Of a stretch of DNA of 64,000 nt, positions 2,539 through 27,553 are shown piece after piece. The translations under genes were made by a program, and so were the position numbers. Position 1 is the first letter of the stretch. Each line of letters starts with the position of its first letter. This DNA comes from an uncultured Clostridia bacterium (GTDB taxonomy: Bacteria > Bacillota > Clostridia > Christensenellales > CAG-314). The stretch is taken from positions 22,085 to 86,084 of the forward strand of contig CANQPI010000001.1 of NCBI GenBank assembly GCA_947625725.1. The letters are read 5' to 3'. The notes under the pieces were generated by a model, which made no database searches, had not been told where the DNA came from, and worked only from the letters and a program-made list of their open reading frames with translations.

Positions 2539-2552
2539 AATGATTTTCTCCT

Positions 2553-3903: not shown

Positions 3904-3914
3904 TGTTATTACTC

Positions 3915-4364: not shown

Positions 4365-4871
4365 TTTAATCTCCTTTACGCAATCCTCGCTATTAGCGCT
4401 TGGTCTCATTCTGTGAGCTCTGAATGGCATTTGAGTACGGGGAGTAGTTTCGCGGTGACGAAATGCTATTTGTAATACTCAATGTAGCCAAATTACTAAT
4501 AGTTTGGGTGTGGTGTTGAAGGCATTGGCGACTTTGGGGCTTTTTGGGGGCTACGTGCGGGAATGTCTACAGGTGATCAGTAAGTGCCCATAGCAGCGTC
4601 CGGTTGGCTCCCGCTGTCACTTCGCGTTACCTTGAATTTCATTCGAGGCTCTAATGGAAATTAGAAACAGCGATTGCGAAATTTATTATTGTTGTAAAAT
4701 TAGATGCTCACAAACGCGGAAGGATGTGTATGCGGAAAGCCGACGGCACGGAAGGCTTTCCGCATATGCATCCGACGCGTTTGATTGGGTGGCGTCAAAG
4801 CGCTAATCCTCGTGTAGGAAGATATGTTTAATGTAATCAAACACCTGATGATTCAGTATTCCCATCCAATT
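4365..4871 (-). other. ORF-free spacer between RT and RNase HI; candidate RT-associated non-coding RNA region
   Basis: 507 nt with no RBS-preceded ORF on the transcribed strand in an otherwise gene-dense arm; contains several hairpins. Confidence 0.4.
4714..4780 (-). other. 67-nt extended hairpin (12-bp perfect core ATGCGGAAAGCC/GGCTTTCCGCAT plus two flanking helices)
   Basis: ACGCG-tc-GGATG-cat-ATGCGGAAAGCC-12 nt loop-GGCTTTCCGCAT-aca-CATCC-ttc-CGCGT read directly; only a weak U-tract follows. Confidence 0.7.
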
Positions 4872-6299: not shown

Positions 6300-6594
6300 T
6301 TTGTATCTCCTAATAAACTACAGTATGGAAAACGGTTTCCCTCAGATCAGACTGCTCCGGAGGAAGCTGGGGTGGGGGCGACGTTCAGTCGTCCGATTTG
6401 CACGTTTTTGCTGAAATCCGCTACGAAAATTGGCTAATTGAATCAGTTTTTGTTGTTGGATAACATCAACGGGTCTTGGAGAGAGCTAAGGAAGACGCCG
6501 CGATGCAGAAGTCTCTTCTTCGGGTCGGATTGTCGCGTTCACAATGCGGTACTTTTAATGTCATTAAAAGCCTTATATAAGAATGCTTTATTAG
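6300..6594 (-). other. ORF-free spacer upstream of RT; candidate ncRNA/leader
   Basis: 295 nt without ORF between E1-like stop and RT start; hairpins at 6552-6570, about 6385-6400 and 6328-6341. Confidence 0.4.
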
Positions 6595-7269
6595 TTAAAA
6601 TGTGTCGATTGCGAATGTAAATGGATTAGCAACGGCTATATGAGTCAGTGCCCCTTGACGAACAAAGTTCATAAAGTTGGTTATTCCAAGCGCGCAAATA
6701 ACGCGTACGGTTGGAGCTACTCCCATTTCAACGTTGCAAGCGGTCACGGGAGTTGTTTCTTTTGCTTCCTCGTGGGTAAAGTCCATGGTACTGATAAATC
6801 CATCTATATCCCTTGGGTTGTTCCAGTCGGCAGCGTAGTGTTGGGCATCTTCTAGTCTCGTTCGGAAGTCAAACATCGCCTTGATCGCGCGATTGAATTT
6901 ATTTTCCGTGGCAATTTGGCGTCGCAAGTCGATGTTGTCTACGCAGAGAAAGACATAACCGTTAAGCCTCACTTTTGGCTCCCAGCCCTGAGAGCAAATT
7001 TCAACGTTGTTTTCGCAGTCGGGATTGATTGCGACTAACATCTTTTTGACTGCCTCGACTTTCGGGGCTCCAATGTCCGAGTTGACAAACATTTGGTTTG
7101 CGATATTATGTGCGACGACTCTATCAAAATCGTAGAGTGTGATTTTCGTAAGACCCAGTCTAACGAGCAGTTCGGCGATGGTAGAGCCTACGGAGCCGCA
7201 ACCAATAATGTGGCAGCGCTCCCTGATTTTTGTTGGGTTGAAGTAGTCTATAGATTTGACAAGATCCAT
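6595..7269 (-). CDS. E1-like (ThiF/MoeB/HesA family) adenylyltransferase, minimal form
   Basis: Start moved to M11 (AAGGAGGTGA upstream; 8-nt gap after JAB stop). IIGCGSVGSTIAELLVRLG Rossmann loop, YDFDRV, CVDNIDLRR, Cys in TACNVE. Confidence 0.8.
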   Translation of the reverse strand: MDLVKSIDYFNPTKIRERCHIIGCGSVGSTIAELLVRLGLTKITLYDFDRVVAHNIANQMFVNSDIGAPKVEAVKKMLVAINPDCENNVEICSQGWEPKVRLNGYVFLCVDNIDLRRQIATENKFNRAIKAMFDFRTRLEDAQHYAADWNNPRDIDGFISTMDFTHEEAKETTPVTACNVEMGVAPTVRVICALGITNFMNFVRQGALTHIAVANPFTFAIDTF

Positions 7270-7277
7270 TGGTAATC

Positions 7278-8138
7278 TCACCTCCTTGGGTATCTCCACT
7301 TATTATAGGGGCTATAATCCCATTCATCGGGTTCTTCGTCGTCGCGCGCAGGAGCATCCATATAGTTCATGCTTGTTTGGGGACTATACTGTTGTGCCTT
7401 TCCTTTCGTCTTCTTTGTGGAGTTCACTCCCAGCGGATAAAGTGGGCGTGGAGTAGGAACAGTCACTTTTTTGCCTGTTTCTTTAATGAAGTTCTCAAGG
7501 GTTTCGCCGTCCTCAAACTCTACGCTTATTGTTATTTCGTTAGTATTGTACAAGGCATTGTATTGAAGATCGTATATTAAACTTGTCACTTCGCCCCTCT
7601 TGTTGACTATCATGAATATGTAGAAAACGTCGTTGTTTTCGTTGGGGGTTTCGAAAAGGTTAAGTATCTTTTTCTGGTAGGCGGTGTCGACTGCCGAGGG
7701 GGTACATCCCATATTGACGTGGCTATGTCCGTGTAGGCGCACTTTATTGAAAATGTCGTCGGGCAAACTGTCGAGCCATTGGTTATACTCGCCTTGGTCA
7801 GATGTGACTGTCGCTTCCGATACCTCGTGGGGAAATGTAAGGATGTCCTCGACAAGAAATTCCCTCTCTGCCGTTCGCGTAACGAGCCCATGCCATTGCA
7901 CTTCTGTATTATAGGTGATTACTAAAGCGTACATTTTTGCATAAGCCTTCGGAGTGAACCGGAGAGTTGCTCGCCGATCATCAAAGCCGTTGTCCCCAAG
8001 AGAAAAAGAGAAGTTGAATTGAGGAATGTCTGTAAGTTGCAGACGCTCTTTTCTCTTTGATTCAAGAAAAGCCTTGAAGTCCCCAAGGAGTTTCTCCGCA
8101 AGTTCGGGAGATGTATCACGTAGAATTTTTTTAGCCAT
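7278..8138 (-). CDS. JAB/JAMM (MPN+) metalloisopeptidase
   Basis: HGHSHVNMGCTPSAVD = HxHx7Sx2D with upstream Glu (FPHEVSE); start overlaps upstream stop (TAATG). Confidence 0.8.
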   Translation of the reverse strand: MAKKILRDTSPELAEKLLGDFKAFLESKRKERLQLTDIPQFNFSFSLGDNGFDDRRATLRFTPKAYAKMYALVITYNTEVQWHGLVTRTAEREFLVEDILTFPHEVSEATVTSDQGEYNQWLDSLPDDIFNKVRLHGHSHVNMGCTPSAVDTAYQKKILNLFETPNENNDVFYIFMIVNKRGEVTSLIYDLQYNALYNTNEITISVEFEDGETLENFIKETGKKVTVPTPRPLYPLGVNSTKKTKGKAQQYSPQTSMNYMDAPARDDEEPDEWDYSPYNKWRYPRR

Positions 8139-9526
8139 TATTCGTTCTCCTCGTCTTGTGATCTTTCGATGTAATTGACGAACTCGTCGGGAGTCATGCG
8201 GCGACCGTCATCAAGAAGAATGCACTTGCGCGAAAAGGCAAAATCTTCGATGTCTTCGATAAAGCGTCCCATAACCGTTGTATCAGAGAAATTTATATTC
8301 TTGGTCGCGGCAACCGCTTGATCGATTGCACTCTGCCAATCTCCCGACATCAGATAGTTGTCTATATATGCTTTATTGCCGCCAAGACACCCATAGTAAC
8401 AGAGGTGCGGGTGAGGCATTGCTTCCGGATCGTTAATGCAATGTCTCTCGCATCTCACTGGGGTTAATGCTGACAACCCTTTGAGTGTAAATTTGCTTTC
8501 CACAACGAACACGCCCTTGTGTCGACGGAATATATAGTCGCATACTTTTTGAGCAAATGGGAAATCCTCGAAATAAGAGGCATTTTCGAGAACGTTGTCA
8601 ATAATATTTTCGTCATAATATTCCAATGTCTCTACAATGCCGAAGTCTATGGCACCCGAACCAGATGCCGTTACTTCGTTAATTCTCAGGTGTCTTCTCG
8701 ATTGGAAGAAATTCACAATTTCGTTTGCTTTGCTTTCCGGAGCTGACTTCCAACAGTATAACTCCTGCCTTATCTTGTCCAAGGTTTGCAAACAGCCGTC
8801 GATGCGTTCCTCATACTCCCTTACGTCGCTAATCAAAGACTCCTCGTTGCCTTCAAGGTTCTTAATGCGATTTTTGATGTAAGTTTTGTTGTAGTCCGTG
8901 AGCAGTTTAATTGTCGCAAGATTCGCGAAATCTATGCCTTGACATGCGTCGTTTATGATGCTTGCGATCAAGTCAAAATCAACCTTGCTCGAGGAACGAT
9001 GAACTGCTCCGAAACTTTTGTATATTTGAAGTTCCTCCCCTTCGGGATTGGTGGGATAAAACCACGGGAAAACACGGAACAGTGTTGAGCACAAAAGGCG
9101 TACCCAGCGCAATGTAATTTTACGAACAAAGATAATGCTCTTTTTAAGTTCGTTGTTGACGTATACTTTTGTTTCTTCCGCCGTTCCCAAATATTGGTTT
9201 ACTGGGTAGGGCTTTGAATCAAGTGCTACCCACCCCTCTGCAAAAATTGTAGGAAGAGCCTCGTCTTGACGTGCCGCCGTTCCTATAAATAAATCGCAAT
9301 CGTTTGTTTGGGATATGAATGGATTCCCATCGGCGCCGCGAACAACTTGTGCATGCGGTTTTATGAGTTGTAGCGTCGATATATCACCATGGTGGTGCTT
9401 GAGAACAATATACCTCAACACCGCTTCGAGCTCGACGCTACCGTCGAACTCGAGAGGTTGTTGGCTAAAATAAGCGTTTGCGCTGGGGCCTGTAAGTATA
9501 GTTGTTAACCTATCCATTGCAGACAC
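8138..9526 (-). CDS. E2-like (UBC-fold candidate) protein with long N-terminal extension
   Basis: C-terminal MPHPHLCYYGCLGGN resembles the E2 HPN-x-Cys active-site signature; sits between the Ubl and JAB genes; TAGGAG RBS. Confidence 0.55.
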   Translation of the reverse strand: MSAMDRLTTILTGPSANAYFSQQPLEFDGSVELEAVLRYIVLKHHHGDISTLQLIKPHAQVVRGADGNPFISQTNDCDLFIGTAARQDEALPTIFAEGWVALDSKPYPVNQYLGTAEETKVYVNNELKKSIIFVRKITLRWVRLLCSTLFRVFPWFYPTNPEGEELQIYKSFGAVHRSSSKVDFDLIASIINDACQGIDFANLATIKLLTDYNKTYIKNRIKNLEGNEESLISDVREYEERIDGCLQTLDKIRQELYCWKSAPESKANEIVNFFQSRRHLRINEVTASGSGAIDFGIVETLEYYDENIIDNVLENASYFEDFPFAQKVCDYIFRRHKGVFVVESKFTLKGLSALTPVRCERHCINDPEAMPHPHLCYYGCLGGNKAYIDNYLMSGDWQSAIDQAVAATKNINFSDTTVMGRFIEDIEDFAFSRKCILLDDGRRMTPDEFVNYIERSQDEENE

Positions 9527-9541
9527 TCCTATGTATTGATG

Positions 9542-9778
9542 TTATCTTGCTCCGTCTGCCTTCACGATGGCGCCAAGGGCAATTTCGTCGCCGGACTTGT
9601 AACCCAAGTTTTCGAGGGTGCTGTTGAGCTCCGTGTTAGTCAGGGTTTTGCCATTGATGTTGACGGAACAGCCGCCGACGTTGGCTCCAACCTGAGCGAA
9701 TATCTCCAAAGGAGTTGTGCTGGGCTGAACAGTGATTTCTCTACGAGTTGTATTAGTTTTTACGCTGACTTTAATCAT
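9542..9778 (-). CDS. ubiquitin-like (ThiS/MoaD beta-grasp-like) small protein
   Basis: 78 aa; ..VNINGKTL..LGYKSGDEIALGAIVKADGAR pattern typical of ThiS/MoaD-type Ubls; AAGGAG RBS; first gene of the coupled cassette. Confidence 0.6.
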   Translation of the reverse strand: MIKVSVKTNTTRREITVQPSTTPLEIFAQVGANVGGCSVNINGKTLTNTELNSTLENLGYKSGDEIALGAIVKADGAR

Positions 9779-13884: not shown

Positions 13885-14064
13885 TTACGCTTTTGATTTA
13901 CGTTTGCGACGAGCGCGGGGCATTCGCGGTACAATCCATTTTCTCCAATTGCAAGAAAATTTGCTGACGCGGTTTCCCTTGCCGTCGCGCATTGGCTTAT
14001 TCAGGCGGTCAATGCCTGCCGTCTGCATATTGTATCTGGCGATACTTCTTAAAAGTTTTCTCAT
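13885..14064 (-). CDS. possible 59-aa highly basic protein
   Basis: ATG 5 nt after AGGAG; MRKLLRSIARYNMQTAGIDRLNK...PRMPRARRKRKSKA; below the track length cutoff. Confidence 0.35.
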   Translation of the reverse strand: MRKLLRSIARYNMQTAGIDRLNKPMRDGKGNRVSKFSCNWRKWIVPRMPRARRKRKSKA

Positions 14065-14441
14065 AATAACTCCTATTATAGTTTCACAATCCTAACGCGA
14101 CAGAATGTTAATCCAGCGAAGGAAGGAGACGCATTCGAGGTGCTTCTGGCGTGTGAGGAGTTTGTTGGTTTAATGGTTGTTTAATGGTTTTAATCAACAA
14201 TAATTCTGAAAAGTGAATGGGTTTTTATCCTAAGAGAAAGGTTCGAGTATTTAAGAGATGGTCGCGAACGCTCATTCGAACCGCTCAAGGGGCTTAGGGT
14301 TCCGATGAAAGTGACCAGATGGTATCCCTCAGGCGGCTTCCCGCCTTCACTTCTCGATGCCCTGAACGTTGTCCAAGGTTCTACAAGGTAGAAATGCGAT
14401 TGTGAATTGCTTTACAGTCCCCAAACGTGTCGTGTAATTGT

Positions 14442-14470
14442 ATTATATGACACAGATGTGGAGTTGTCAA
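14442..14470 (-). promoter_or_regulatory. sigma-70-type consensus promoter (TTGACA-17-TATAAT) with A-rich upstream tract
   Basis: Minus strand: TTGACA at 14470-14465, exact 17-nt spacer, TATAAT at 14447-14442; AAAAAAACTTTCAAAAAAA just upstream. Confidence 0.7.
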
Positions 14471-14490
14471 GCGTTTTTTTGAAAGTTTTT

Positions 14491-14871
14491 TTAAGAATTT
14501 TCTTTGGCTTTGCGAGCTTTCATTTTCGCGTACCAACGGTGTTGATATTCGGCACGCTTACGCCTTTGCTCCGCCAAGATTTCCTCGGCGGTTGGCGCAG
14601 CCCCCGAAGGAGCGGGGACAAGACGTCTGACGGGTGCCGTCAAAGATGCCGCATTGACGACCTCAATGGATGCGATCTCAGCCGCGAGGGCGGCTTTGCT
14701 TGCAACCAAGGTGAGATATGTTGCATCTTCCTTGTCGCAGGGAATGGTGGCGCCGGTGCAGTTGAGCTTGATGTCGACGTGCCCAACGCGGTCGATTTTT
14801 TTGATAAGTTGCGTTACGTGCTTGAGCGCCTTAGCCTTACGCCCAATAATTTCAGCTGTTCTGTTATCCAT
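14491..14871 (-). CDS. hypothetical protein
   Basis: Start at M9 (AAGGAG + 8 nt). Confidence 0.7.
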   Translation of the reverse strand: MDNRTAEIIGRKAKALKHVTQLIKKIDRVGHVDIKLNCTGATIPCDKEDATYLTLVASKAALAAEIASIEVVNAASLTAPVRRLVPAPSGAAPTAEEILAEQRRKRAEYQHRWYAKMKARKAKENS

Positions 14872-14896
14872 AGTTACTCTCCTTGTTTTTTGCATT

Positions 14897-14920
14897 AAAA
14901 AAGCACCCCGTCAAGGGTAC
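14897..14920 (-). terminator. intrinsic terminator candidate
   Basis: Minus strand GTACCC-TTGACG-GGGTGC followed by TTTTTT. Confidence 0.45.
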
Positions 14921-14985
14921 TTGGTTGTCAAATGTGTTACTTGTGAGGCGGTGTGTAACGCGATGGACACAGAATGATTGCCTCA

Positions 14986-15384
14986 TTATTTGTCTGTGTA
15001 AATGTGGTTCTCCTCTACTTTTTGGTAAGGGTTGTCAATAAAGAACGAGATTAAAAACGACCCATCCTCTAGTCCAGTACCGTTTATGTTAATCGCTTTG
15101 CATTGTGATAATGTAGAAATGAAACTTTTCATGTTATTCTTTTCATCTCCAATTATCAGGTCGTTGGCGAACCGCAGCGCTATCTCAACAAATTCTTCGC
15201 CTTCGCGGACAACGCTATATTCAATAGCGCCCTCATTTTTATCTGCAAGCGTTTGACAGTAATCGAGAACTTGTATCACAACTGACGCTTTTTCTGGGTC
15301 TACAATATAGTTCCCTTCTCTACGTTTGGCGAGATGCTCTAAATACGCCTCGCCTAATAGTTCGTTGAATTCTTCTTCGGTCAT
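14986..15384 (-). CDS. hypothetical protein
   Basis: Start at M16 (AGGAGG + 5 nt). Confidence 0.7.
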   Translation of the reverse strand: MTEEEFNELLGEAYLEHLAKRREGNYIVDPEKASVVIQVLDYCQTLADKNEGAIEYSVVREGEEFVEIALRFANDLIIGDEKNNMKSFISTLSQCKAININGTGLEDGSFLISFFIDNPYQKVEENHIYTDK

Positions 15385-15683
15385 ATGTCCTCCTGACGCA
15401 CAGAGGACAATCGATAGCCCCCTGCGCAAATATAATATTAAACTGCGCAGCGGCTATCAGCCACTCAAATAAGCAAACAACCCGTTAAAAAGGAGCGGGT
15501 GGTGCATATCGCACCACCCCAGTGGAAGCAACTCGTAAAAACGAGTACACAACCAAATGCGCCAAGCCAGCGGCGCAACGCTACGCCCTCAGCCAGATGG
15601 GCGTTACGCATTATAAATATATCACTCCGTTTTGGAAAAGTCAATCAAAAAAACATTATTCCAAGACAGAGGCTTGGGGACTA

Positions 15684-16436
15684 TTATTTTTTCACCCTTC
15701 TGAAGCCGTCAATTCCATATTTGCCGTTTGTAAGCAGGCGATATGCGACATCAACTAGGATGCGAAGCAAGTAGGTGTCATTCGACACGCGAACCGTCAA
15801 GCGCGCCTTGTTGCTCTTTTTACCATATAGGTCATCGAGATACGCGACGTCGTGGGTGTTGCATCTAGTCAAAGCACAACCCTCGGGCAGTATGTCGTCA
15901 AGTATGCCCTGAAGCAGTTTGACTACTTTGGTATTGCTATCGGGCGTCCCGCCCATTTCGATTTTCTGTGCTGCTTCGCGCAAGTAGTATGTTGTTGCAA
16001 TATCCTTCGCGGGTATGCCCAACGATTTAGCGGCACGCAAGCATAGCAATTGGTTAAGTTTGCTTACGGAATGCGCCCATTCCGTATCGATTTTTGCCCT
16101 CTTGCAAAATGCAAGCAGGTTGATTTGACGCTCTTTGTCGACCAATTCGACCGAAATGACCGCATTGGCGTTTGTCTTGTCGTGGGATTCGTGATGCCCA
16201 AATGTCTTGTATGCGTATGCCTTGATAACATCAGGCACGGCATTTTCGGTGCCTATGAACTTGTCATAAAACGCATTGGCAGCCATCTCGCCATACTGCT
16301 TCTCTAAGGCAACAAGGTTGTCCATAGATGTACTGTATGCCGCGCTGTCGACTGGTTTTTTGCCAAGTATAGCGTTGACCTCTTTGACAGCATCACGCAA
16401 TTTCGCCTCGACCGTTTCCATTGTGATTTGTTCCAT
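15684..16436 (-). CDS. hypothetical protein
   Basis: Start at M11 (AAGGAG + 9 nt); 250 aa. Confidence 0.75.
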   Translation of the reverse strand: MEQITMETVEAKLRDAVKEVNAILGKKPVDSAAYSTSMDNLVALEKQYGEMAANAFYDKFIGTENAVPDVIKAYAYKTFGHHESHDKTNANAVISVELVDKERQINLLAFCKRAKIDTEWAHSVSKLNQLLCLRAAKSLGIPAKDIATTYYLREAAQKIEMGGTPDSNTKVVKLLQGILDDILPEGCALTRCNTHDVAYLDDLYGKKSNKARLTVRVSNDTYLLRILVDVAYRLLTNGKYGIDGFRRVKK

Positions 16437-16461
16437 AATAAAACACTCCTTGAATGTATTA

Positions 16462-16542
16462 GGCAATCAGTTGGCTGCTATGCCATCCACGCCCGCCGCT
16501 GGGAGGCTTGCCTGTGGGCGCGAGGCTTGCATATAGCAAGCC
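16462..16542 (-). repeat. two-hairpin leader motif, copy 1
   Basis: GGCTTGC-tatat-GCAAGCC then CGCCC-[acaGGCAAGCCTCCCAGCGGC]-GGGCG, about 25 nt upstream of the RBS of gene 15684-16436. Confidence 0.6.
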
Positions 16543-16556
16543 CAAAGGAGGAAAAA

Positions 16557-16655
16557 ATGAAAAGGCTATGCCCAAGTGGCACAGTATTGACCGTTACGCA
16601 ATATGGTCACTTCATCACCAAACAAATACCATTGCTTGGCGGTAGAGAATTTTGA
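16557..16655 (+). CDS. possible 32-aa ORF antisense to 16566-16712
   Basis: AAAGGAGG 5 nt upstream of ATG; MKRLCPSGTVLTVTQYGHFITKQIPLLGGREF. Confidence 0.2.
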   Translation: MKRLCPSGTVLTVTQYGHFITKQIPLLGGREF

Positions 16656-16712
16656 TGACTTTTTGCCCGTACATTTATTGATGAACAAATACGTCGCTCT
16701 TTGTTTTAACAT
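16566..16712 (-). CDS. possible 48-aa protein
   Basis: Start at M19 (AAGGGG RBS), preceded by motif copy 2 just as gene 15684-16436 is preceded by copy 1. Confidence 0.35.
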   Translation of the reverse strand: MLKQRATYLFINKCTGKKSSKFSTAKQWYLFGDEVTILRNGQYCATWA

Positions 16713-16733
16713 AATCCGATCCCCTTGTTGTAA

Positions 16734-16825
16734 GGCAATCAGTTGACTATAACGCCATCCACCCACGCCACAGGGAGGCTTGCCATTGTGGGCAAGAGCC
16801 GCATATCATAAGCGACACGCGGCTC
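16734..16825 (-). repeat. two-hairpin leader motif, copy 2
   Basis: GAGCCGC-16 nt-GCGGCTC then GCCCAC-[aatGGCAAGCCTCCCTGTGGC]-GTGGGT, then ..TGGATGGC..CAACTGATTGCCT shared with copy 1. Confidence 0.6.
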
Positions 16826-17265
16826 CCAATATACCCGCATTGATGAAATGCGGAAGGAATTGTTTGATTATGTGTTGTTTGAAGTCTATACATATACATT
16901 ATCTAAAACATCAAAATGTACGCAATGCCCCTTGGGCAAGTGCGTAGTTCCCCTGCTGGCAGATTTTGATAACCGCCACGCCATAGCATTGCTTGAATAC
17001 TATGTGTATAACGGCTAAAAGGGTAGATGTTACGCAATGTACTTCTAAGACCGGCAATGTCCGCAAGCCGCGTTTAGGCTATCGCTACCTGTTGCCGTTT
17101 TCACTAACCGACACGCCGCAAGTCTACACCTATGCGGCTGAACCGTCGCCTTATTGCGTTTAAGGTTACGCTATGGTAATTCTATCGCCAACCATAGTTG
17201 GCTATAGCAACTTGCCGAATAGGTATCGTGCTATTAAAATAGTCGAACTTCTGACCTATTCGTTG

Positions 17266-17329
17266 CCCGCCCTACGCCACTGGGAGGCGTTGCTACGCAG
17301 GGCATAAGTCACCGCCGCACTATGCGGCG
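17266..17329 (-). repeat. two-hairpin motif, copy 3 (more divergent)
   Basis: CGCCGC-atagt-GCGGCG then GCCCTGCG-[tagCAACGCCTCCCAGTGG]-CGTAGGGC. Confidence 0.5.
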
Positions 17330-17344
17330 ATGACGCTCGTATGG

Positions 17345-17494
17345 TTACAAAGTTTCGTTGTATGTGCGCTCGAAGTCATCACGCAAGGCTATGCCTTCGG
17401 CATCATCGGGATTGATTGCAAGCAATGCCCGAATGGCACGCCGTGTCATCTCCTTGGTATCCTGCCGCGCCCTAATCTGTTGGGCAATGGTCAT
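17345..17494 (-). CDS. possible 49-aa protein
   Basis: AGGAGG 7 nt upstream of ATG; MTIAQQIRARQDTKEMTRRAIRALLAINPDDAEGIALRDDFERTYNETL; below the track cutoff. Confidence 0.45.
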   Translation of the reverse strand: MTIAQQIRARQDTKEMTRRAIRALLAINPDDAEGIALRDDFERTYNETL

Positions 17495-17528
17495 TCGTTA
17501 TCCTCCTGGAATGTTGGTCAATCGTCAC

Positions 17529-17599
17529 GCCGTTCGGTTGCCGTTGGACGGTTGCCACTATAAGGGACGAGCCGTCAACCCCTTTAGGGGTTAGGTTGC
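17529..17599. repeat. 71-bp dispersed direct repeat, copy a
   Basis: Identical to 17668-17738; contains GGTTGCC x2, CCGTTGGACGG, GACGAGCCGTC and the AACCCCTTTAGGGGTT palindrome. Confidence 0.9.
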
Positions 17600-17667
17600 G
17601 GCACCCCCCCCACACACGCGAGGGGTGTCGGCACAGCCTGCCCACATAGGCGGGCGCCGTCGTGGTT

Positions 17668-17738
17668 GCCGTTCGGTTGCCGTTGGACGGTTGCCACTAT
17701 AAGGGACGAGCCGTCAACCCCTTTAGGGGTTAGGTTGC
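17668..17738. repeat. 71-bp dispersed direct repeat, copy b
   Basis: 71/71 identical to 17529-17599 by direct comparison. Confidence 0.9.
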
Positions 17739-17879
17739 TCGCGGTGGTGGGTGTTCTGGTCGCCCCCTTCCCCTGCACCCTATCCCCCACCGACGTACGC
17801 ACACGCTCGCGGTGGTGGGTGTTCTGGTCGCCCCCTTCCCCTGCACCCTATCCCCCACCGACGTACGCACACGCTCGCG
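17738..17879. repeat. 68-bp tandem repeat, 2.1 copies; C-rich on plus strand, G4-type motif on minus strand
   Basis: Units 17738-17805 and 17806-17873 identical. Minus strand reads GGGGGATAGGGTGCAGGGGAAGGGGG in each unit. Confidence 0.9.
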
Positions 17880-17896
17880 TGTGTATATGTGTGCGT

Positions 17897-17932
17897 AAAA
17901 AAAATCCCGCAGGGATTTTGCACCCTGCGGGA
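17897..17932 (-). terminator. strong intrinsic terminator after the HTH gene
   Basis: Minus strand TCCCGCAGGG-tgcaaaat-CCCTGCGGGA followed by T8, 17 nt after the stop of 17949-18809. Confidence 0.8.
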
Positions 17933-17948
17933 CTGCGTTTCAACCCCT

Positions 17949-18809
17949 TTAGGGGTTGATGCGTGGCAAGTTCGTTTTGTCGGTTCCACCGAGATTTTCA
18001 ATCTCGGTGCGTATCCAAGTGCGTACCTCGCTTGCCATCGCTGATACGCGTTGCTTGCTTATAGCAAGCAATTTGGCGGTTTCAGCCGTTGGCTTTTTGA
18101 GTACTACGTACTCAAAGCACTTCCAGCGTTTGGCGGTAGCGTAGGGGTGCTTGCGTTTGACTTCGTCAAACGCGGCGACGAGCGCGTTGCCCTGCTTTGG
18201 CGTGGAGAAGTATTTCTTTGCCCCTAAAGGGGGCAAAGAGCATTCGTCCTGTTCGGGTTCAACCCCTTCGGGGTTGAGCGAGCAAATTTGCTGAGTGGCG
18301 AACCTAAGGTCACGGTCGCAAACCTCTTCCTTCGGAAGAGTTTTGCGGTCACGGCTCTTGTAGTCGTCACGGCTGTCGATTGCTTTAGCAATCGCCTCGA
18401 ACCCTCGCGTGATTGCGTGCGCGACGTTGCCGTCCCTGACAGCCTCGCACACCGCGAGGACGAAGTCCTCGCGCCATTCTTGCACCTCATTCGTAAGTTC
18501 TACGAACTTACGGGCACTGTCCACGAGGTCGTAGGGCAGGTATGCGTTGCGTGCGAGCGTTGCGTGCTTGCTTGCGACGGCGGCGGCATAGTGCAGGAAG
18601 TCGAGATGCCCGAAGTAACCTACCTCTACGAGGTAGGTTAGGTCGTCGATTGGGTAGCACTCAAGACTAAAAGTCTTGGCGAGTTCAACGAGGCGGCTGA
18701 GTTCGGCTTGCAGGTGGCTCTCACGGACTTCGTCCGTGAGGCTGTCGTCTGCGAGGGTTGCAATGACTTCGTCATTGGCGATTGCGTTTGTTTGTTGGCT
18801 GTGTTTCAT
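17949..18809 (-). CDS. HTH protein with sigma-70 region-4-like C-terminus
   Basis: Start at M31 (AAAGGAG + 5 nt). C-terminal FEYVVLKKPTAETAKLLAISKQRVSAMASEVRTWIR resembles sigma region 4 / LuxR-type HTH. GC-rich codon usage unlike neighbours. Confidence 0.6.
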   Translation of the reverse strand: MKHSQQTNAIANDEVIATLADDSLTDEVRESHLQAELSRLVELAKTFSLECYPIDDLTYLVEVGYFGHLDFLHYAAAVASKHATLARNAYLPYDLVDSARKFVELTNEVQEWREDFVLAVCEAVRDGNVAHAITRGFEAIAKAIDSRDDYKSRDRKTLPKEEVCDRDLRFATQQICSLNPEGVEPEQDECSLPPLGAKKYFSTPKQGNALVAAFDEVKRKHPYATAKRWKCFEYVVLKKPTAETAKLLAISKQRVSAMASEVRTWIRTEIENLGGTDKTNLPRINP

Positions 18810-18908
18810 TTTTGCTCCTTTGCCCCTACGGGGCAACCAACCGTCCGTGGCTTGCGTACCCCTTTGGGGTAGCGGTTGGCTCGGTGGGCTGGCTCCCACC
18901 TTGCCACC

Positions 18909-18917
18909 ATTGTACCA
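18909..18917 (-). promoter_or_regulatory. possible extended -10 (TGGTACAAT) for the HTH gene
   Basis: TGnTAcAAT on minus strand about 100 nt upstream of the ATG; three small hairpins in the leader. Confidence 0.3.
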
Positions 18918-19003
18918 CGCCGACGGCGGAATGGCGCAACGGATTTGCAGAGCAAATCCCGTGACGGGCGCGATAACTCACTTCGCGAGTGCATACGCCT
19001 AGG

Positions 19004-19080
19004 CACGCTAATATCCCACTTCGCGGGCGGGCGGGCGCTTGCACGCTAATAACTAACTCTCGCGCGGGCGCGGGCGGGCG
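19004..19080. repeat. 38-bp imperfect direct repeat x2 with GGGCGGGCGGGCG tracts
   Basis: CACGCTAAT at 19004 and 19042, each followed by a CGCGGGCGGGCGGGCG-like run. Confidence 0.6.
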
Positions 19081-19354
19081 TCTATCCTTGTCGCGCGCAC
19101 ACGTGCGGGCGCGCACTTAAGGTTTATTATTTCTTGGATATTTTGTTTGGGAAGTAACGTGGACGTGGGTTGCCTGTCGCTCTTGGGGGTAGGGGGTTGA
19201 GGGTATTATAAAATACTTAGTGGAAATCAAAGATACAAGAGGGTTTGCCGTCGTGGGGTTGGCGGTGTGGTAGTTGCTTGTTTGCTCTCTGGCGGTGGCA
19301 CTTTGCCACCGAACTCGCGGGGAAATAGTATATATAAAAATAAATAATTCGGGG

Positions 19355-19376
19355 GGCTTGCCTCCCTGCGTGGCGG
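19355..19376 (+). repeat. core of the GCCTCCC..GTGGCG motif in inverted orientation
   Basis: GGCTTGCCTCCCTGCGTGGCGG on the plus strand; other copies carry this core on the minus strand; followed by the 9-bp-stem hairpin 19379-19407. Confidence 0.4.
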
Positions 19377-19704
19377 TTGATATTATCTTTTTAGCGTAGA
19401 TAATATCGCAGGGCAGGGGCTATTTTACACATAAATTTATTATATAAATACACCAAAACAATATGTCAGTTCTCCTTCCATCCCACCAAAAAATCCCCGA
19501 CATTTTTACCCCAATTTTCCTCGAAACTCCGTTCGGAGATCTATCGTACACTAGGGAAAGTTTGCTCTCATGCAAATTGCCCTCGTTATCAAATACCCCG
19601 GGGTACAATTACACAAAAGCCCGCACAGTAGGACAAGTTGTCGAAGACGACAAAAAAAGCCCCTTTTATATAGATATAAGTTATGCTTATTTACGACAGT
19701 AAAA

Positions 19705-19750
19705 CTATCTACTATAGGGGTAAAGTATAAGCTATCTACACAGGGGTAAA
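19705..19750. repeat. direct repeats CTATCTAC-N2-3-AGGGGTAAA x2 (iteron/operator-like)
   Basis: 19705-19724 and 19732-19750 in the AT-rich divergent region. Confidence 0.6.
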
Positions 19751-19780
19751 CTATATATTAGTATATTAGAGTACCCAAGT

Positions 19781-19823
19781 AACAGAGAGTACAAATAATA
19801 GTACACACTAAACAGAGAGTACA
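19781..19823. repeat. direct repeats AACAGAGAGTACAA x2
   Basis: 19781-19794 and 19811-19823; additional AGTACAC words nearby. Confidence 0.6.
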
Positions 19824-20002
19824 ATTAAAATAAAAAAAATAAAAGAAAGATTTACATCAGTAAACATATAGTACACAAGATATGCGTATATAACTAATAG
19901 CTAAATACGCGTACTTATATTATGTTTACTAATAAACTATTTAATATTAGATAAATATTAGAAAAAAAATATAAATTTTTCAAATAAATTATTAAAAAAC
20001 TA

Positions 20003-23088: not shown

Positions 23089-23279
23089 AAATTATTCAGC
23101 CCGATTGTTCGTTCACGGAGGCAGCGCGCGTTTGCAAGGAACGCATGACAACTAACCTTGCGGTACCCTGTGGAAGTTGCCCCATAGCACCGGTATGTGT
23201 TGCTTGTTTCAAGGTGCCACCTTGCGAGTGGGAGAATACGGCGCGCGTAAATTTTGGCGAGGTGGATGATGGAAGTTAA
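23085..23279 (+). CDS. hypothetical small Cys-rich protein
   Basis: 64-aa ORF coupled to neighbours. Confidence 0.55.
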   Translation: MKIIQPDCSFTEAARVCKERMTTNLAVPCGSCPIAPVCVACFKVPPCEWENTARVNFGEVDDGS

Positions 23280-24591
23280 AGTCTGTGATGCGCTCTGCGG
23301 TGCTGGCAAGACTATGAGTTGCATCAACATGATGAACGCGGATACAGAGAACAAATACATCTTCATCACGCCGTACCTTGACGAGGTGGAGCGCATACGC
23401 AAAGGTTGTTCTGAACGGCATTTCATATCTCCGGAAAGGAAGGCAAGCAATGGTTATTCTAAACTCCGCGATTTGCCGCAGTTGCTCCGTGATGGTGAAA
23501 ATATAGCCAGCACCCACGCGCTGTTCTCCTGCTATAACGAAGAGATAAAAGACCTCATTCGGGGCAGCAATTATATCCTAGTGCTTGACGAAGTGATAGA
23601 TTTGTTCCAACCGGTCGACATTGATATTGGAGATGTGGAGTTTCTGACTCGGAATAAGATCGCCAAGCGTGATGGCGACAACGTTGTGTGGAGTGACGAT
23701 AAATATACGGGAGAAGCGTTCAATGAAGTGATGCGGATATCGCAGTCAAAGAATATGGTCGATTACGACGGTAGTTTCTATTTCTGGTCTTTGCCTATCG
23801 ATGTTTTCAAATGTTTTAAGGAAGTTTACGTTTTAACCTATTTGTTTGAATACCAACTTTTACGATATTTCTTTGACGTTAATCACGTCGAATACAAACT
23901 AATTGGAACGAGGCTCAGCAACGGCCGATATGAGTTTTGTGATATGAGCGAAATGCGTAGGCAACGCGATCTTCGCAATAAAATTCACATTGTTTACAAC
24001 GAAAAATACAACGAAATTGGAAATAAATGCTATTCTTTATCATCGAAATGGTTTATGCGTTCGCAAAAAGAGCCTAACCAACCCAACCTACGAGTTCTCA
24101 AGTCCAATATTTACAATGTGTTCCGACAGATGAAGGCGGGGGCAGATGACAAACTGTGGACTACCCTAAACAAGTACAGGGGATACCTCAAAGGGAAAGG
24201 GTATTCAAATGGGTTCATAACTTTCAACAAGCGGGCGACAAATGATTATTCGGATAAGCACTATTTGGCATATTGCGTCAACGTGTATATGATGCCCTGG
24301 ATGAAAAACTATCTTGTGCGGCTCGGCGCGCCTGACGTTAATCAAGACATGTATGCCCTGTCGGTTCTCATACAATGGCTCTTCCGCTCCGCTGTGCGCA
24401 AAGGGGAGGATGTATGGATTTACATACCGAGCAAACGGATGAGATATTTGCTCCACGAATGGATTCAAAACTTGGCGCGGGGAGAGGATCTGCGCGAAAT
24501 CAAATTTGATGTAAAGAAAGCAACAAAATTAAATGAAGCGGGATACGCCTTAACCAAGGCGAGCAAGACTAAAAAGGAGGGAGCCAAATGA
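23266..24591 (+). CDS. P-loop NTPase, SF2 helicase-like
   Basis: Walker A CGAGKT near the N-terminus, Walker B/DExx-like LVLDEV; immediately upstream of the RNAP-like gene. Confidence 0.55.
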   Translation: MMEVKVCDALCGAGKTMSCINMMNADTENKYIFITPYLDEVERIRKGCSERHFISPERKASNGYSKLRDLPQLLRDGENIASTHALFSCYNEEIKDLIRGSNYILVLDEVIDLFQPVDIDIGDVEFLTRNKIAKRDGDNVVWSDDKYTGEAFNEVMRISQSKNMVDYDGSFYFWSLPIDVFKCFKEVYVLTYLFEYQLLRYFFDVNHVEYKLIGTRLSNGRYEFCDMSEMRRQRDLRNKIHIVYNEKYNEIGNKCYSLSSKWFMRSQKEPNQPNLRVLKSNIYNVFRQMKAGADDKLWTTLNKYRGYLKGKGYSNGFITFNKRATNDYSDKHYLAYCVNVYMMPWMKNYLVRLGAPDVNQDMYALSVLIQWLFRSAVRKGEDVWIYIPSKRMRYLLHEWIQNLARGEDLREIKFDVKKATKLNEAGYALTKASKTKKEGAK

Positions 24592-24769: not shown

Positions 24770-27553
24770 ATGAGTAACTCAATAAGGTTAATGTCGGTTG
24801 AAGCCAAAGACCTTTACAACGTAATGATACGGGCGGACGATGCGCAGTATAAAATCCGAGACAAGTCGGGTTTGCTTAGGTTATCGCGGTTTACCAACAC
24901 GTATGATTACTCCTTGGATCTCATTAAACTGTTGGAAATATATCGGCGTAAATATCGGAATGATAGGTTCGCTGTACAAATTGGTCGCCATAAGTACACT
25001 CAACAGATTATCAACGTCACGTTCAAGTACAGCGCCAAGATATACAACTTATGTGGCAAAAACACCTATGTCAAACTAGGCTACAATTACAGCGACTGCG
25101 ATTTCCAAGACGGCGTATATATTAAGGACGGCGAGCTGATTGGGATTCAAACCAACGTAGAGGTGGCGGAGCCTGTGGACAGGGCCATACTTGGTAAGTA
25201 CTTCGCGTTCGTCGATGGGCATTACGAGCAGATTGGAAATATACCCGTTGCCATGGACAGAGCAGCACTGCGCTCGTATTTGTATGCCAATGGGTTTGTT
25301 TGCGATGGCATAAGGTATGTACGATACAAACGTTCTGCGGGAGCAAGTCGTGTTGGGAAATGCTTGTTTATCAATGAGGTACTGTACAAAGACATTCACA
25401 AATGGGATTTGTGCGGTCTAGACATTAAAGACAATCAGCAAATTGATCTCGCATCCTTTGAGGCGTATACGGCATTGTCCATGAGCAGCATCATAGACAC
25501 TCTTGAAATTCCCGCAAACAGTATTTTGGTTATTGATGACTATTCAAGCAAGTTCAAAGACGATGTCGTAATGGTGACATCTAAAGATGGCAAGCTCGCA
25601 TCGCAACGAAAGACGGTTGAATTTTCTAACAGCATTTGGGACGGCGAGTCTTTGTTGGATATCAGTATGTTCGGTTCCTATTCTGACAAGGGAATGTTAT
25701 TGCTACGTAATCGCTTCTTCAAAACTTGTGCGTTCAACACCAACATTCAAAAGTGGTTTGAGGACAACGGCATAACCAGCGTAAAGCAATTAAATGGGTT
25801 TACATTGGCGACGGATATTAGCCAAATCAAACTTATAACAACGCCAAATAGCATAAAGTATTTGAAGTTTGGAACAATAGAGCAATGGCTCGAAAACATA
25901 GAGCCGATATTTGGAATAGTAAAGTACGAAAAAGAAACTCACTATTTTGACGGTCGAATGGTTCAATGCCATTATCAACTTCTCAATACATTGCAATTAT
26001 CATATGACGAAGTGGAACGACTGCTACGTCCCTCATTGGAGTATATCGGGCAGGTAAGAAGCGATCCCGATGTGTTGCGCTACCATATCGGATATCCATT
26101 CCGAGCCGAGCAAGAAGATGGCGAACTCAACCCTTTGAAGTCCAAGAACGACATAGTATTCAAGATGCTTGGCATCAACAATGATTTCGCCAAGACGCAA
26201 CTGTACAAGGAATTTCGCAACGACATCGTAAAAGGGTTCATGCGCAACCTAAAACAGGGGCACCTACTTTTGCACGGCAACTATTCGACGTTGTTAGGCA
26301 ATGGCGTAGAAATGTTGCAGCAAGCAATAGGGGAGTTCCGCGGATACGGTGTCATTGAGCCGGGGTGTATTCATAGCACGAAGTTCAACTACGGTGCAAC
26401 AATTTTGGCTTCGCGGAGTCCTCACATCACGATGGGCAATATCTATCTGGCGCGCAATGTGGCGAACGAGCAGATTGACAGATATTTTAACCTAACCAAT
26501 GAGATAGTTTATATCAACGCCATCGACGAGAACATTCAGCAACGCCTCAATGGGTGTGACTACGATAGCGACAGTATCCTGTTGACGGATAATGAAATAC
26601 TCATAGATGCGGCGCAGAAAAACTATCGCTTGTTCAAGGTGCCGACCTGCTTTGTTGAGTCGCAAAAAACTAACAGATATTATAACGACGAGCACAAAGC
26701 AGACCTTGATGTCAAGACGAGTGTCAACAAAATAGGCGAGATAGTCAATCTGTCACAGCAACTTAACAGCTTGTTTTGGGAACATATCAACGAAGGGCAT
26801 ACGTTCGGCGAGTGCGAAGAACTCTACAATGATATATGCAAACTAGCAGTGCTATCTGGTATTGAAATTGACAAGGCTAAGCGTGAATATGTCATTAACA
26901 GTGCCAACGAGATAGAGCGGCTCAAATCTAAGTACAAACTCATCCAAGACGACAAGCAGGTCAAGCCAATGTTTTTCAAGATGATAACCTTGGAAAACGG
27001 ATTCGAACTCAGCGACAAGGTGCATTACAGGTATTTCGCCACTACAATGGATTACTTGCAACAAATCATTGCCAAAACGAATTTCCGCCAGGCCCGCAAG
27101 TATGCCATCAAGCCTGTGCCATTTATGGACATAGTACGCCGCCCTGAGGGCAACTTATCCGGTGGTTCATATAGTTTGCGGCGCGACTTAATCATCGACA
27201 TTGTGCGTACAGCAAAAGAGGATATTAGAATCCTATACGCCGACTACGACACAAAAAGTGATGAGGATAGAATGTTTGTTTGGGCACGAGCTGCCGAGCG
27301 CAAGCAAGATTGCATCGACGCCATCGACAGAATATCCCAAGACGAGTTCCTGATGTACTCAATTCTCAAAGAGTTGGATGCGAAGGAAACCAGAGACGTG
27401 TACAGATTTATGTTTGAGGTGTTGTTCGGTGAACCAAACCAAGCCTTTTTCACAATGATCGAGCGCAGTAAAGAGCCTCTATATCGCCTTGAAGAAAGCA
27501 ATGATGGCGACATAAAATTATACGATTTTAACTTCGGGAAAGTCGCTGCATAG
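24770..27553 (+). CDS. single-subunit two-barrel RNA polymerase, YonO / RdRP-like
   Basis: ILASRSPHITMGNIYL ... LNGCDYDSDSILLT matches the RdRP/YonO pattern (R/K-N/S-P-x-h-H-x-G-D/N ... G-x-D-h-D-G/S-D); upstream basic YKRSAGASRVGKCLF segment; 927 aa. Confidence 0.65.
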   Translation: MSNSIRLMSVEAKDLYNVMIRADDAQYKIRDKSGLLRLSRFTNTYDYSLDLIKLLEIYRRKYRNDRFAVQIGRHKYTQQIINVTFKYSAKIYNLCGKNTYVKLGYNYSDCDFQDGVYIKDGELIGIQTNVEVAEPVDRAILGKYFAFVDGHYEQIGNIPVAMDRAALRSYLYANGFVCDGIRYVRYKRSAGASRVGKCLFINEVLYKDIHKWDLCGLDIKDNQQIDLASFEAYTALSMSSIIDTLEIPANSILVIDDYSSKFKDDVVMVTSKDGKLASQRKTVEFSNSIWDGESLLDISMFGSYSDKGMLLLRNRFFKTCAFNTNIQKWFEDNGITSVKQLNGFTLATDISQIKLITTPNSIKYLKFGTIEQWLENIEPIFGIVKYEKETHYFDGRMVQCHYQLLNTLQLSYDEVERLLRPSLEYIGQVRSDPDVLRYHIGYPFRAEQEDGELNPLKSKNDIVFKMLGINNDFAKTQLYKEFRNDIVKGFMRNLKQGHLLLHGNYSTLLGNGVEMLQQAIGEFRGYGVIEPGCIHSTKFNYGATILASRSPHITMGNIYLARNVANEQIDRYFNLTNEIVYINAIDENIQQRLNGCDYDSDSILLTDNEILIDAAQKNYRLFKVPTCFVESQKTNRYYNDEHKADLDVKTSVNKIGEIVNLSQQLNSLFWEHINEGHTFGECEELYNDICKLAVLSGIEIDKAKREYVINSANEIERLKSKYKLIQDDKQVKPMFFKMITLENGFELSDKVHYRYFATTMDYLQQIIAKTNFRQARKYAIKPVPFMDIVRRPEGNLSGGSYSLRRDLIIDIVRTAKEDIRILYADYDTKSDEDRMFVWARAAERKQDCIDAIDRISQDEFLMYSILKELDAKETRDVYRFMFEVLFGEPNQAFFTMIERSKEPLYRLEESNDGDIKLYDFNFGKVAA

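Follow-up and report, generated by a model that had tools for sequence, protein, structure and literature searches.

Three repeated elements in the leftward arm of a phage

The 64,000-nucleotide (nt) stretch of DNA analysed here (the window; positions 22,085 to 86,084 of contig CANQPI010000001.1, assembly GCA_947625725.1, from an uncultured Clostridia bacterium) looks like a phage with divergent arms, in which leftward genes extend to about position 19000 and rightward genes begin at about 19400. Three structured elements, referred to as Rz1, Rz2 and Rz3, lie on the minus strand of the leftward arm (Table 1). A preliminary description of this DNA had placed three repeated motifs upstream of leftward genes, and we read their minus-strand sequences and their position identically; no fourth copy is present in the window. 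The analyses below indicate that these elements are very probably self-cleaving ribozymes resembling that of hepatitis delta virus (HDV), most likely cutting the leftward phage transcript into separate RNAs. The ribozyme family is already known, and the exact subfamily appears in published tables; the little-studied part is the context, which here combines the absence of tRNA, tandem copies, placement in mRNA 5' untranslated regions (UTRs) and the flanking of an RNA resembling the RAGATH-16 motif. Minimal HDV-like ribozymes are abundant in gut phages, and a role has been proposed only for those adjacent to tRNAs. No tRNA was found by ARAGORN in the 64-kb window, no window sequence matched Rfam at gathering thresholds, and megablast of positions 14000-20000 against the INPHARED phages returned no close relative.

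Table 1 Predicted ribozymes, their structural parts, the upstream hairpins and the neighbouring transcript features in the window (bp, base pairs; aa, amino acids; ORF, open reading frame; SD, Shine-Dalgarno sequence; dG, folding free energy)
Feature	Positions	Strand	Description
Rz1	16461-16521	-	minimal-type HDV-like, 61 nt; predicted cut 5' of G16521
Rz1 P1	16521-16516/16494-16489	-	GCGCCC/GGGCGU, G1.U included
Rz1 P2	16513-16508/16466-16461	-	AGGCAA/UUGCCU
Rz1 P3	16507-16505/16497-16495	-	L3 16504-16498, UCCCAGC
Rz1 P1.1	C16503, C16502 with G16488, G16487	-	
Rz1 L4	16486-16471	-	contains 3-bp mini-hairpin
Rz1 J4/2	16470-16467	-	CUGA; putative catalytic C = 16470
Rz2	16734-16793	-	minimal-type HDV-like, 60 nt; predicted cut 5' of G16793
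Rz2 P1	16793-16788/16766-16761	-	GCCCAC/GUGGGU
Rz2 P2	16784-16780/16738-16734	-	GGCAA/UUGCC
Rz2 P3	16779-16777/16769-16767	-	L3 16776-16770, UCCCUGU
Rz2 P1.1	16760-16759	-	GG
Rz2 L4	16758-16743	-	
Rz2 J4/2	16742-16739	-	CUGA; putative catalytic C = 16742
Rz3	17205-17303	-	HDV-like with P4, 99 nt; predicted cut 5' of G17303
Rz3 P1	17303-17297/17275-17269	-	GCCCUGC/GUAGGGC
Rz3 P2	17295-17289/17211-17205	-	UAGCAAC/GUUGCUA
Rz3 P3	17288-17286/17278-17276	-	L3 17285-17279, UCCCAGU
Rz3 P1.1	17268-17267	-	GG; J1/4 GCAAC, same as in HDV
Rz3 P4	17261-17217	-	45 nt; outer stem GAAUAGGU/ACCUAUUC
Rz3 J4/2	17216-17212	-	GGCAA; putative catalytic C = 17214
Hairpin 1, module 1	16523-16543	-	GGGCUUGC-UAUAU-GCAAGCCU; dG -13.7 kcal/mol, z -4.4; ends 1 nt before Rz1 site
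Hairpin 1, module 2	16795-16826	-	13-bp stem; dG -23.0 kcal/mol, z -4.6; ends 1 nt before Rz2 site
Hairpin 1, module 3	17308-17334	-	12-bp stem; dG -22.1 kcal/mol, z -4.4; ends 4 nt before Rz3 site
250-aa ORF	15684-16436	-	start codon 25 nt past Rz1 3' end; SD AAGGAG at +10
48-aa ORF	16566-16712	-	start codon (ATG) 22 nt past Rz2 3' end
49-aa ORF	17345-17494	-	upstream of module 3
Non-coding stretch	16827-17204	-	between Rz3 and module 2 hairpin 1; about 380 nt; holds RAGATH-16-like domain

A predicted double pseudoknot

In all three copies the helices P1, P2, P3 with its loop L3, and P1.1, then P4 or a short linker, and the cytosine of junction J4/2 follow one another in canonical order, and the overall fold is a nested double pseudoknot made by the P2 and P1.1 pairings, with CC...GG forming P1.1 in each copy. 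The preliminary description had seen a motif of two hairpins, the second with a conserved loop. That second hairpin stands as P1, but its "loop" is the 5' strand of P2 followed by P3 and L3; its pairing partners are the downstream CAACTGATTGCCT (in P2) and the GG that follows the stem (in P1.1), and it thereby joins the double pseudoknot. The segment TGGATGGC..CAACTGATTGCCT, reported as shared by copies 1 and 2, is indeed common to them and corresponds to P1.1, L4, the catalytic junction J4/2 and the 3' strand of P2, CAACTGATTGCCT itself being J4/2 plus the 3' strand of P2. By their predicted anatomy, Rz1 and Rz2 are of the minimal, P4-reduced type that has been published as minimal drz or theta ribozymes, and Rz3 is of the P4-bearing type, near the HDV-like ribozyme of Faecalibacterium prausnitzii (RF02682). 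The minimum-energy fold of Rz3 contains both P1 and the P4 stem.

The recurrence of the motif in the window exceeds expectation: the 17-nt core GCAAGCCTCCCWGYGGC has 3 matches when up to 3 mismatches are allowed, versus 0.38 expected, and none of 100 shuffles reaches 3. Copies 1 and 2 together form an 81-nt direct repeat with 74% identity (16461-16541 and 16733-16813). A structural descriptor composed of P1, P2, P3, L3, P1.1 and a CNRA junction recovers Rz1 and Rz2 and gives zero matches in 200 dinucleotide shuffles of the window. Ten minimal-type copies also served to build a covariance model (R1) of the nested helices P1 and P3 only; in the 64-kb window it finds exactly 3 sites, at 68.2, 68.2 and 15.4 bits, the two strong ones (Rz1 and Rz2) being members of its seed.

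Two further copies suggested earlier do not belong to the family. The supposed core in opposite orientation at 19355-19376 on the plus strand scores 3.0 bits (E = 2.7) and covers model positions 10-27 only; its "L3" is 9 nt long, no P1 partner is visible by eye, and the string is not conserved in relatives. A conserved promoter-like palindrome adjoins this site. The supposed degenerate relative at 15563-15610 has no minus-strand match to the model and consists of two unrelated hairpins downstream of a sigma-70-like promoter. The minus-strand interval of about 15495-15644 holds a promoter-like site (15644-15610) with a sigma-70-like TTGACT-17-TATATT (15644-15616), the two hairpins and a strong terminator (15519-15497), and is possibly a small RNA unit of its own.

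Covariation in related phages

The 250-aa protein encoded downstream of Rz1 has 62 homologs on metagenomic contigs of up to 250 kb, mostly 46-59% identical and, for the most distant, 32-42%; the DNA around eleven of the 62 was compared, and the gene is conserved in all relatives used. These related large phage contigs, many of them binned in metagenome-assembled genomes (MAGs) of Clostridia, carry 2-5 ribozyme copies at the same positions within a kept gene order, in which a protein with a YonV_C domain and a protein of about 930 aa on one side are followed by a 225-306-aa protein (434 aa in relative L028), a non-coding stretch and the 250-260-aa gene. Searches of IMG/VR for the locus with the 250-aa and 286-aa proteins of the window found no relatives; with its 445-aa YonV_C protein they found 4 contigs, which end before the region and have no R1 match.

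The preliminary description had proposed a covariance-model search of the phage and its relatives, and this search bears out the family: R1 finds 33 sites in the relatives, many of them non-seed copies at 34-67 bits, and no site in rightward-arm loci. In the intergenic DNA of relatives L013 and L016 the motif stands at matching positions with stems that are different yet complementary. AGGCAA, the 5' part of the "loop", can pair with the downstream box UUGCCU, and both change together (UUGACAA/UUGUCAA, UUGCAAA/UUUGCAA, ACUCAAU/AUUGAGU, UGGUAA/UUACCA and GGGCU/AGCCC across copies); the element is therefore a pseudoknot and not a simple hairpin. A structural parser fitted 24 distinct copies from the window and relatives to the full HDV-like plan (P1, J1/2, 5' strand of P2, P3 as NCC, L3 as UCCNNGY, P3', P1', GG, linker or P4, C-Y-R-A, 3' strand of P2), and a few further copies were placed by eye.

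Base pairs were counted on a model-based alignment of the 20 best R1 matches (A4), with the full pseudoknotted structure scored; two MAFFT alignments, one with all 28 copies and one with the P4 types, misaligned the P1 and P2 strands and were left out of the counts. Paired cells amount to 94.7%, versus 34-48% after displacement of the 3' partners by 1-3 columns, and 10 of the 17 pairs show changes on both sides, with an observed covariation score that none of 500 shuffles reaches. Compensatory changes are seen in all four helices, in agreement with the earlier statement that the stem covaries while the "loop" is conserved. P1 is 99.1% paired with both-side changes at 4 of its 6 pairs, and P3 is 100% paired, with changes from GC to AU at the outer pair and a GCG/CGC variant in place of GCC/GGC in two copies (L024:208, L028:1745). 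P1.1 is 97.4% paired, and outside the aligned set its CC:GG becomes CU:AG (L016:5654) or UC:GA (L026:2309). P2, to which the alignment was not fitted because this helix is absent from R1, is 89% paired with both-side changes at 4 of 5 pairs. The J4/2 cytosine is invariant in 19 of 19 aligned relatives; the U and G of L3 are likewise invariant residues of the core.

The strand of the structure was also correctly assigned at the outset. In 16 of 19 distinct sequences P1 opens with a G.U pair; on the other strand this would be an A-C mismatch, and the structure therefore belongs to the sense RNA, which is the minus strand in the window. This bears on the proposal that the repeats act as DNA, whether as a terminator-plus-promoter module, an operator or an intergenic repeat of the repetitive extragenic palindrome (REP) kind. 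Such a reading fits their repetition in intergenic DNA before genes and the resemblance of the upstream hairpin to an intrinsic terminator in some relatives, and we nevertheless hold it to be extremely improbable: helices are kept through G.U pairs, stem sequences vary with pairing maintained, unlike a sequence-specific DNA site, and all 33 model matches in the relatives lie on the strand of the protein gene that orients each locus. A two-box sigma-54 or sigma-70 promoter formed by the "loop" and a GATTGCCT box was rejected as well: the distance between the two differs by 12 nt among phages, too much for a two-box promoter, and a promoter scan found no minus-strand sigma-70-like site at the three modules, where its sole promoter-like match (16780-16809) is on the plus strand.

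The conserved nucleotides speak likewise to the suggestion that the motif is a cis-acting RNA bound by a phage protein or by RNA polymerase, the neighbouring 286-aa protein being its candidate partner; a put-like antiterminator and a translational operator would be examples. The elements are structured, sense-stranded and located in 5' UTRs beside terminator-like hairpins, and one distant homolog of the 286-aa protein has weak Sigma70_r4_2/GerE marks. What is conserved, however, is exactly the HDV catalytic core (the U and G of L3, P1.1 and the J4/2 cytosine) within a double pseudoknot whose orthologs pass the RF02682 threshold. The core also occurs in dozens of other viral contigs and in MAGs of many phyla, with different flanks in those that were read, and the upstream hairpin is not conserved in sequence. 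The 286-aa protein itself, described before as resembling sigma region 4, has no sigma-domain match in Pfam even at E <= 10 and no RNA-binding domain match, and a partner is not required, because a self-cleaving ribozyme needs none. We accordingly consider a protein-binding role very improbable; for the promoter, REP-like repeat or antitermination-factor site put forward earlier, we find an HDV-like double pseudoknot instead. A put-like antiterminator and a preQ1-type pseudoknot riboswitch had been considered and were dropped after Rfam pointed to HDV and all core elements were found. The CCUCC of the motif was likewise rejected as an anti-SD sequence sequestering the ribosome-binding site; it forms the universal core of P3/L3, and no ORF follows copy 3.

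Comparison with known HDV-like ribozymes

Among published ribozymes, Rz1 and Rz2 most resemble the theta type, minimal HDV-like ribozymes that Kienbeck et al. (2024, Nat Commun; PMC10879173) described in gut Caudoviricetes; the study builds on the minimal drz motif (e.g. drz-Mtgn-1), and four theta representatives in it cleaved in vitro. Rz1 divides into the same segments (P1, J1/2, P2, P3, U, P1.1, 4 nt, P3', P1', P1.1', L4, J4/2, P2'), reading GCGCCC-AC-AGGCAA-GCC-T-CC-CAGC-GGC-GGGCGT-GG-ATGGCATAGCAGCCAA-CTGA-TTGCCT. Shared with theta ribozymes are a 6-7-bp P1, a short J1/2, P2, the pattern NCC / U-CC-NNGY / GGN followed by GG, a short L4 in place of P4 and a J4/2 that begins with C. Copies of the relatives read GCTCTC-AA-TGGCAA-GCC-T-CC-TCGT-GGC-GAGAGT-GG-ATAACCAA-CCGA-TTGTCA, and the strings GG-ATAACCAA-CCAA are the same in relatives' copies and in theta entries of the supplementary data (PMC10879173). 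Rz1 and Rz2 differ from the relatives' minimal copies only by a 16-nt L4 bearing a 3-bp mini-hairpin, which replaces the ATAACCAA of theta ribozymes; at least one theta or minimal drz entry of the supplementary data has a 17-nt L4, and the exact window sequences were not found among the supplementary entries listed (PMC10879173).

The setting is similar too, namely Caudoviricetes, mostly of animal gut, with ribozymes in sense orientation to the nearest ORF. Whereas 58% of theta ribozymes lie at tRNA 3' ends, which is defined by a site within 5 nt on either side of such an end, no window copy does so, and they fall with the 526 "isolated" theta matches, of which more than 96% are sense to the nearest ORF and which have no assigned function (PMC10879173). 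The published role at tRNA 3' ends is inapplicable here because there is no tRNA.

Rz3 aligns to the full 74-position RF02682 model with 29.3 bits (E = 0.013; matched part 17232-17303, minus strand) and shares with it a P4 hairpin and a J4/2 of the GGC(U)AA type. It differs in a much longer P4, in a J4/2 that is 1 nt shorter, in its sub-threshold score and in its setting in a phage upstream of a RAGATH-16-like RNA. Its syntenic orthologs in relatives exceed the gathering score of 44, with 48.3 bits (E = 1.9e-7) for L013:5051-5119 and 46.2 bits for L028:1990-2057. The window copies themselves miss that score and are filed under the HDV-like class and not under the family RF02682. The genomic HDV ribozyme (RF00094) has the same nested double pseudoknot, and L013:5049-5119 scores 32.5 bits against it, under the gathering score of 50; the present elements differ in belonging to a DNA phage, in a short or absent P4 and in having no rolling-circle role. 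The core GCCUCC..G..GGC-P1'-GG(G)CAAC is nearly the same as what we take to be the HDV string, AGCCUCCUCGCUGGCGCCGGCUGGGCAAC.

Two other systems offer likenesses of arrangement. In HDV-like ribozymes of R2 and other non-long-terminal-repeat (non-LTR) retrotransposons and in RiboJ insulators, cleavage frees a coding RNA on which the ribozyme stays as a structured 5' leader, close upstream of the translation start; these come from other organisms, and RiboJ is another ribozyme class. Twister and hammerhead ribozymes are the ones around which the RAGATH motifs were defined; RAGATH neighbourhoods share with this locus several self-cleaving ribozymes within a few kb of phage DNA beside a RAGATH-family RNA, but the ribozymes here are HDV-like.

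Distribution beyond the lineage

Matches to the core pattern CCTCCNCGYGGY-N6-GGATAMYCAAC were found in 42 GTDB species representatives and 88 IMG/VR contigs, where chance would give an estimated <1 per collection, and the GTDB matches are mostly MAGs of Clostridia/Bacillota from animal guts and anaerobic habitats. A perfect 6-bp P1 is present in 127 of 134 matches, and 121 of the matches combine this P1 with a P2 of 5 bp or more. Among 105 distinct contexts (the wide set), 5 abut a tRNA 3' end and 32 precede an SD sequence and ORF start, at a median of 28 nt downstream. One apparently different phage contig, L127 (IMGVR_UViG_3300043442_000931), has 10 minimal HDV-like ribozymes in about 8 kb on one strand (1715-9572, minus), most of them just upstream of a small ORF, and no tRNA. 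A search of IMG/VR with an exact 18-mer of the motif was discarded; its 5 matches, in GC-rich and apparently coding DNA with dissimilar flanks, are about the number expected by chance.

Upstream hairpins and genomic context

The first hairpin of the preliminary description (hairpin 1) is real in all three modules (z near -4.5, with 1-4 nt between hairpin end and ribozyme) and is a separate conserved feature, a stable hairpin 0-7 nt ahead of the cleavage site. When the 45 nt upstream of 32 ribozymes of the lineage were folded, a stable hairpin was obtained with a median z of -4.3, and its end lay at most 10 nt, typically 0-7 nt, from the predicted site in 30 of the 32. Positions drawn at random from that DNA pass a slightly stricter cut-off of 8 nt in about 30% of cases; at this cut-off the hairpin is present in 82 of the 103 wide-set copies that had enough upstream sequence to fold. 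It has no conserved sequence. Its reading as a terminator holds in part: a U-run follows it in several relatives (L013:5606, L016:5381, L024:1130, L028:2671), but the window hairpins have no U-run, the nucleotides between them and G1 being C, U and UUAU, and a scan for intrinsic terminators lists none of the three.

The three predicted cut sites are preceded by an ORF and hairpin, a non-coding RNA and hairpin, and an ORF and hairpin, respectively, and the stop codon of the 49-aa ORF comes shortly before the module 3 hairpin. The 48-aa ORF has no family match. In the non-coding stretch, the RAGATH-16-like domain (17165-17089, minus) scores 21.5 bits, below threshold, while the motif is above the Rfam threshold in relatives (75.7 bits for L026:2468-2539 and 65.8 bits for L018:3001-3072). 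The 5' ~140 nt of the stretch are conserved in alignment with relatives, among which the entire inter-ribozyme stretch of about 400 nt is conserved; the 3' half has diverged in the window.

Other observations concern the surroundings of the ribozymes. A conserved CACATTGGTGT abuts the cleavage site of the relatives' P4-type ribozymes and forms a 4-bp mini-hairpin (L013:5039-5050, L024:424-435, L028:1978-1989); Rz3 of the window has GGTGACTTAT instead. A second conserved non-coding RNA, with the pattern ACCAUA..UAUGGGG.GA.GCCUGCC..GGCAUAGCG, lies directly 3' of a minimal ribozyme in five relatives (L016:5710-5900, L018:3746-, L024:258-, L028:1795-, L029:2766-). It has no clear counterpart in the window and no Rfam match, at E <= 10 for the L016 copy and at gathering thresholds for the other copies. 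The leftward arm of relatives also holds a transfer-messenger RNA (tmRNA) gene and unusually long tRNA matches of 116-120 nt (L024:3947-4285, L028:5469-5807, L013:10013-10132, L029:6597-6712), neither of which is in the window.

Upstream of the 49-aa ORF, positions 17529-17872 hold two perfect tandem duplications (71 nt x2 and 68 nt x2) that carry the palindrome AACCCCTAAAGGGGTT and then TTGACGGCTCG..TATAGTG, an element that is also duplicated in L020. The independent assemblies L010 and L012 of this phage break at these repeats, their first nucleotide lying some 1286 nt upstream of the 250-aa gene. They could be a phage-specific promoter or a regulatory repeat for the leftward transcript.

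A possible role in transcript processing

HDV ribozymes cut 5' of their first nucleotide, leaving a 2',3'-cyclic phosphate on the upstream RNA and a 5'-hydroxyl (5'-OH) on the downstream RNA. The ribozymes of the window would fold as the leftward transcript is made, which may start at the 17529-17872 repeats, and would cut it at the three predicted sites, so that the upstream RNA would keep the cyclic phosphate and the downstream RNA would carry a 5'-OH with its first base buried in P1. Four pieces would result: the 49-aa mRNA, with its 3' end at the module 3 hairpin after the Rz3 cut; Rz3 with the RAGATH-16-like RNA, ending at the module 2 hairpin; Rz2 with the 48-aa mRNA, ending at the module 1 hairpin; and Rz1 with the 250-aa mRNA. 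The cuts by Rz3 and Rz2 would thus define both ends of the RAGATH-16-like RNA, and each piece would have a structured, exonuclease-resistant end. Hairpin 1 may also keep upstream sequence from disturbing ribozyme folding and, where it has a U-run in relatives, may terminate part of transcription.

A hairpin before nearly every site, together with an SD and start codon or a conserved non-coding RNA after it, suggests from context that the module most likely serves as punctuation independent of ribonucleases (RNases). As a tentative generalisation, which we find plausible without leaning on it, modules of a stable hairpin and a minimal HDV-like ribozyme would form an RNase-independent punctuation system in this lineage and in others such as L127, dividing polycistronic transcripts of the early or middle stage into monocistronic mRNAs and separate non-coding RNAs (RAGATH-16 and the second, unnamed RNA) with hairpin 3' ends and ribozyme-capped 5'-OH ends.

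A somewhat unlikely alternative is that the ribozymes are real and selection acts only on their forming the upstream RNA's 3' end, the role put forward for theta ribozymes at tRNA 3' ends, with the capped 5' end as a by-product. The stable hairpin abutting the site in most lineage and wide-set copies agrees with this, as do the presence of the same subfamily at tRNA 3' ends (the 5 wide-set cases and the published set) and the position of Rz2 directly after the terminal hairpin of a non-coding RNA. The SD and start codon, however, follow the ribozyme at a tight, conserved distance, with an A-rich spacer and then AAGGAG at +15 to +19 in the Rz1 type and the median of 28 nt to the start codon in the wide set, which suggests that the 5' UTR arrangement is also under selection. 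The 3'-end and 5' UTR roles are not mutually exclusive.

If the punctuation role holds, it would give a function to the large "isolated" theta class, uncoupling the stability and translation of neighbouring cistrons from host RNA-processing enzymes; it would explain how mRNA and small-RNA ends are set without host RNases, supply natural ribozyme-insulator parts and link the orphan motif RAGATH-16 to a defined processing pathway. An unexplained repeat would become three annotatable, predicted catalytic RNAs with cut sites at single-nucleotide resolution, and the locus with its syntenic relatives is a compact testable case, with upstream hairpins, start codons about 25 nt on and ribozymes flanking a RAGATH-16-like RNA.

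Several points weigh against reading the three elements as ribozymes that cut the leftward transcript. The fold, its conservation and the family membership are established by sequence analysis, and self-cleavage is what we infer from the sequence only. No window copy reaches any Rfam gathering score (29.3 bits for Rz3 versus 44 for RF02682), and Rz1 and Rz2 have no Rfam match at E <= 10. These two combine a 6-bp P1 with the 16-nt L4 insertion, and their closest relatives are without these. In Rz3, J4/2 reads C-A-A(-G) (17214-17211), 1 nt short of the C-N-R-A consensus, and the strict structural descriptor misses this copy, so that its activity is less certain than that of Rz1 and Rz2; in its minimum-energy fold, moreover, J1/4 GGCAAC pairs with the 3' strand of P2 as a competitor. 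As for the cutting of a common transcript, co-transcription of the four RNA units is an assumption. RNase J1 of Firmicutes can target 5'-OH ends, as in the precedent of glmS; any stabilisation of the downstream RNA is therefore putative.

Part of this evidence would also suit decaying, inactive ribozyme relics with no present function, in particular the off-consensus J4/2 and sub-threshold score of Rz3 and the broken P1.1 in some relatives' copies (L022:3425, L018:3394). Against this, every core feature is kept in Rz1 and Rz2, synteny of the positions holds between phages that share no more than about 50-59% identity in the adjacent protein, and compensatory changes keep the pairing, indicating purifying selection on the fold. 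For the set as a whole we regard decay as improbable; for Rz3 alone this reading may apply.

Other features of the two arms

Further genes and sites were recorded away from the ribozymes. A 475-aa reverse transcriptase (4872-6299, minus; RVT_1 E = 2.2e-19, phrog_2825) adjoins a ThiF-family gene according to the gene table of L010, and may belong to a diversity-generating retroelement or another phage reverse transcriptase system. In the rightward arm, a 445-aa protein (23254-24591, plus; phrog_2467), with homologs that bear Pfam YonV_C, precedes a 927-aa protein (24770-27553, plus; phrog_8308) with no Pfam or PDB sequence match, and every relative keeps this pair where the rightward arm starts. 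At the start of this arm in the window, a promoter-like TTGATA-16-GATAAT (19377-19406, plus) lies within the palindrome ATATTATC..GATAATAT, which is conserved at the same place in L013 and L016.

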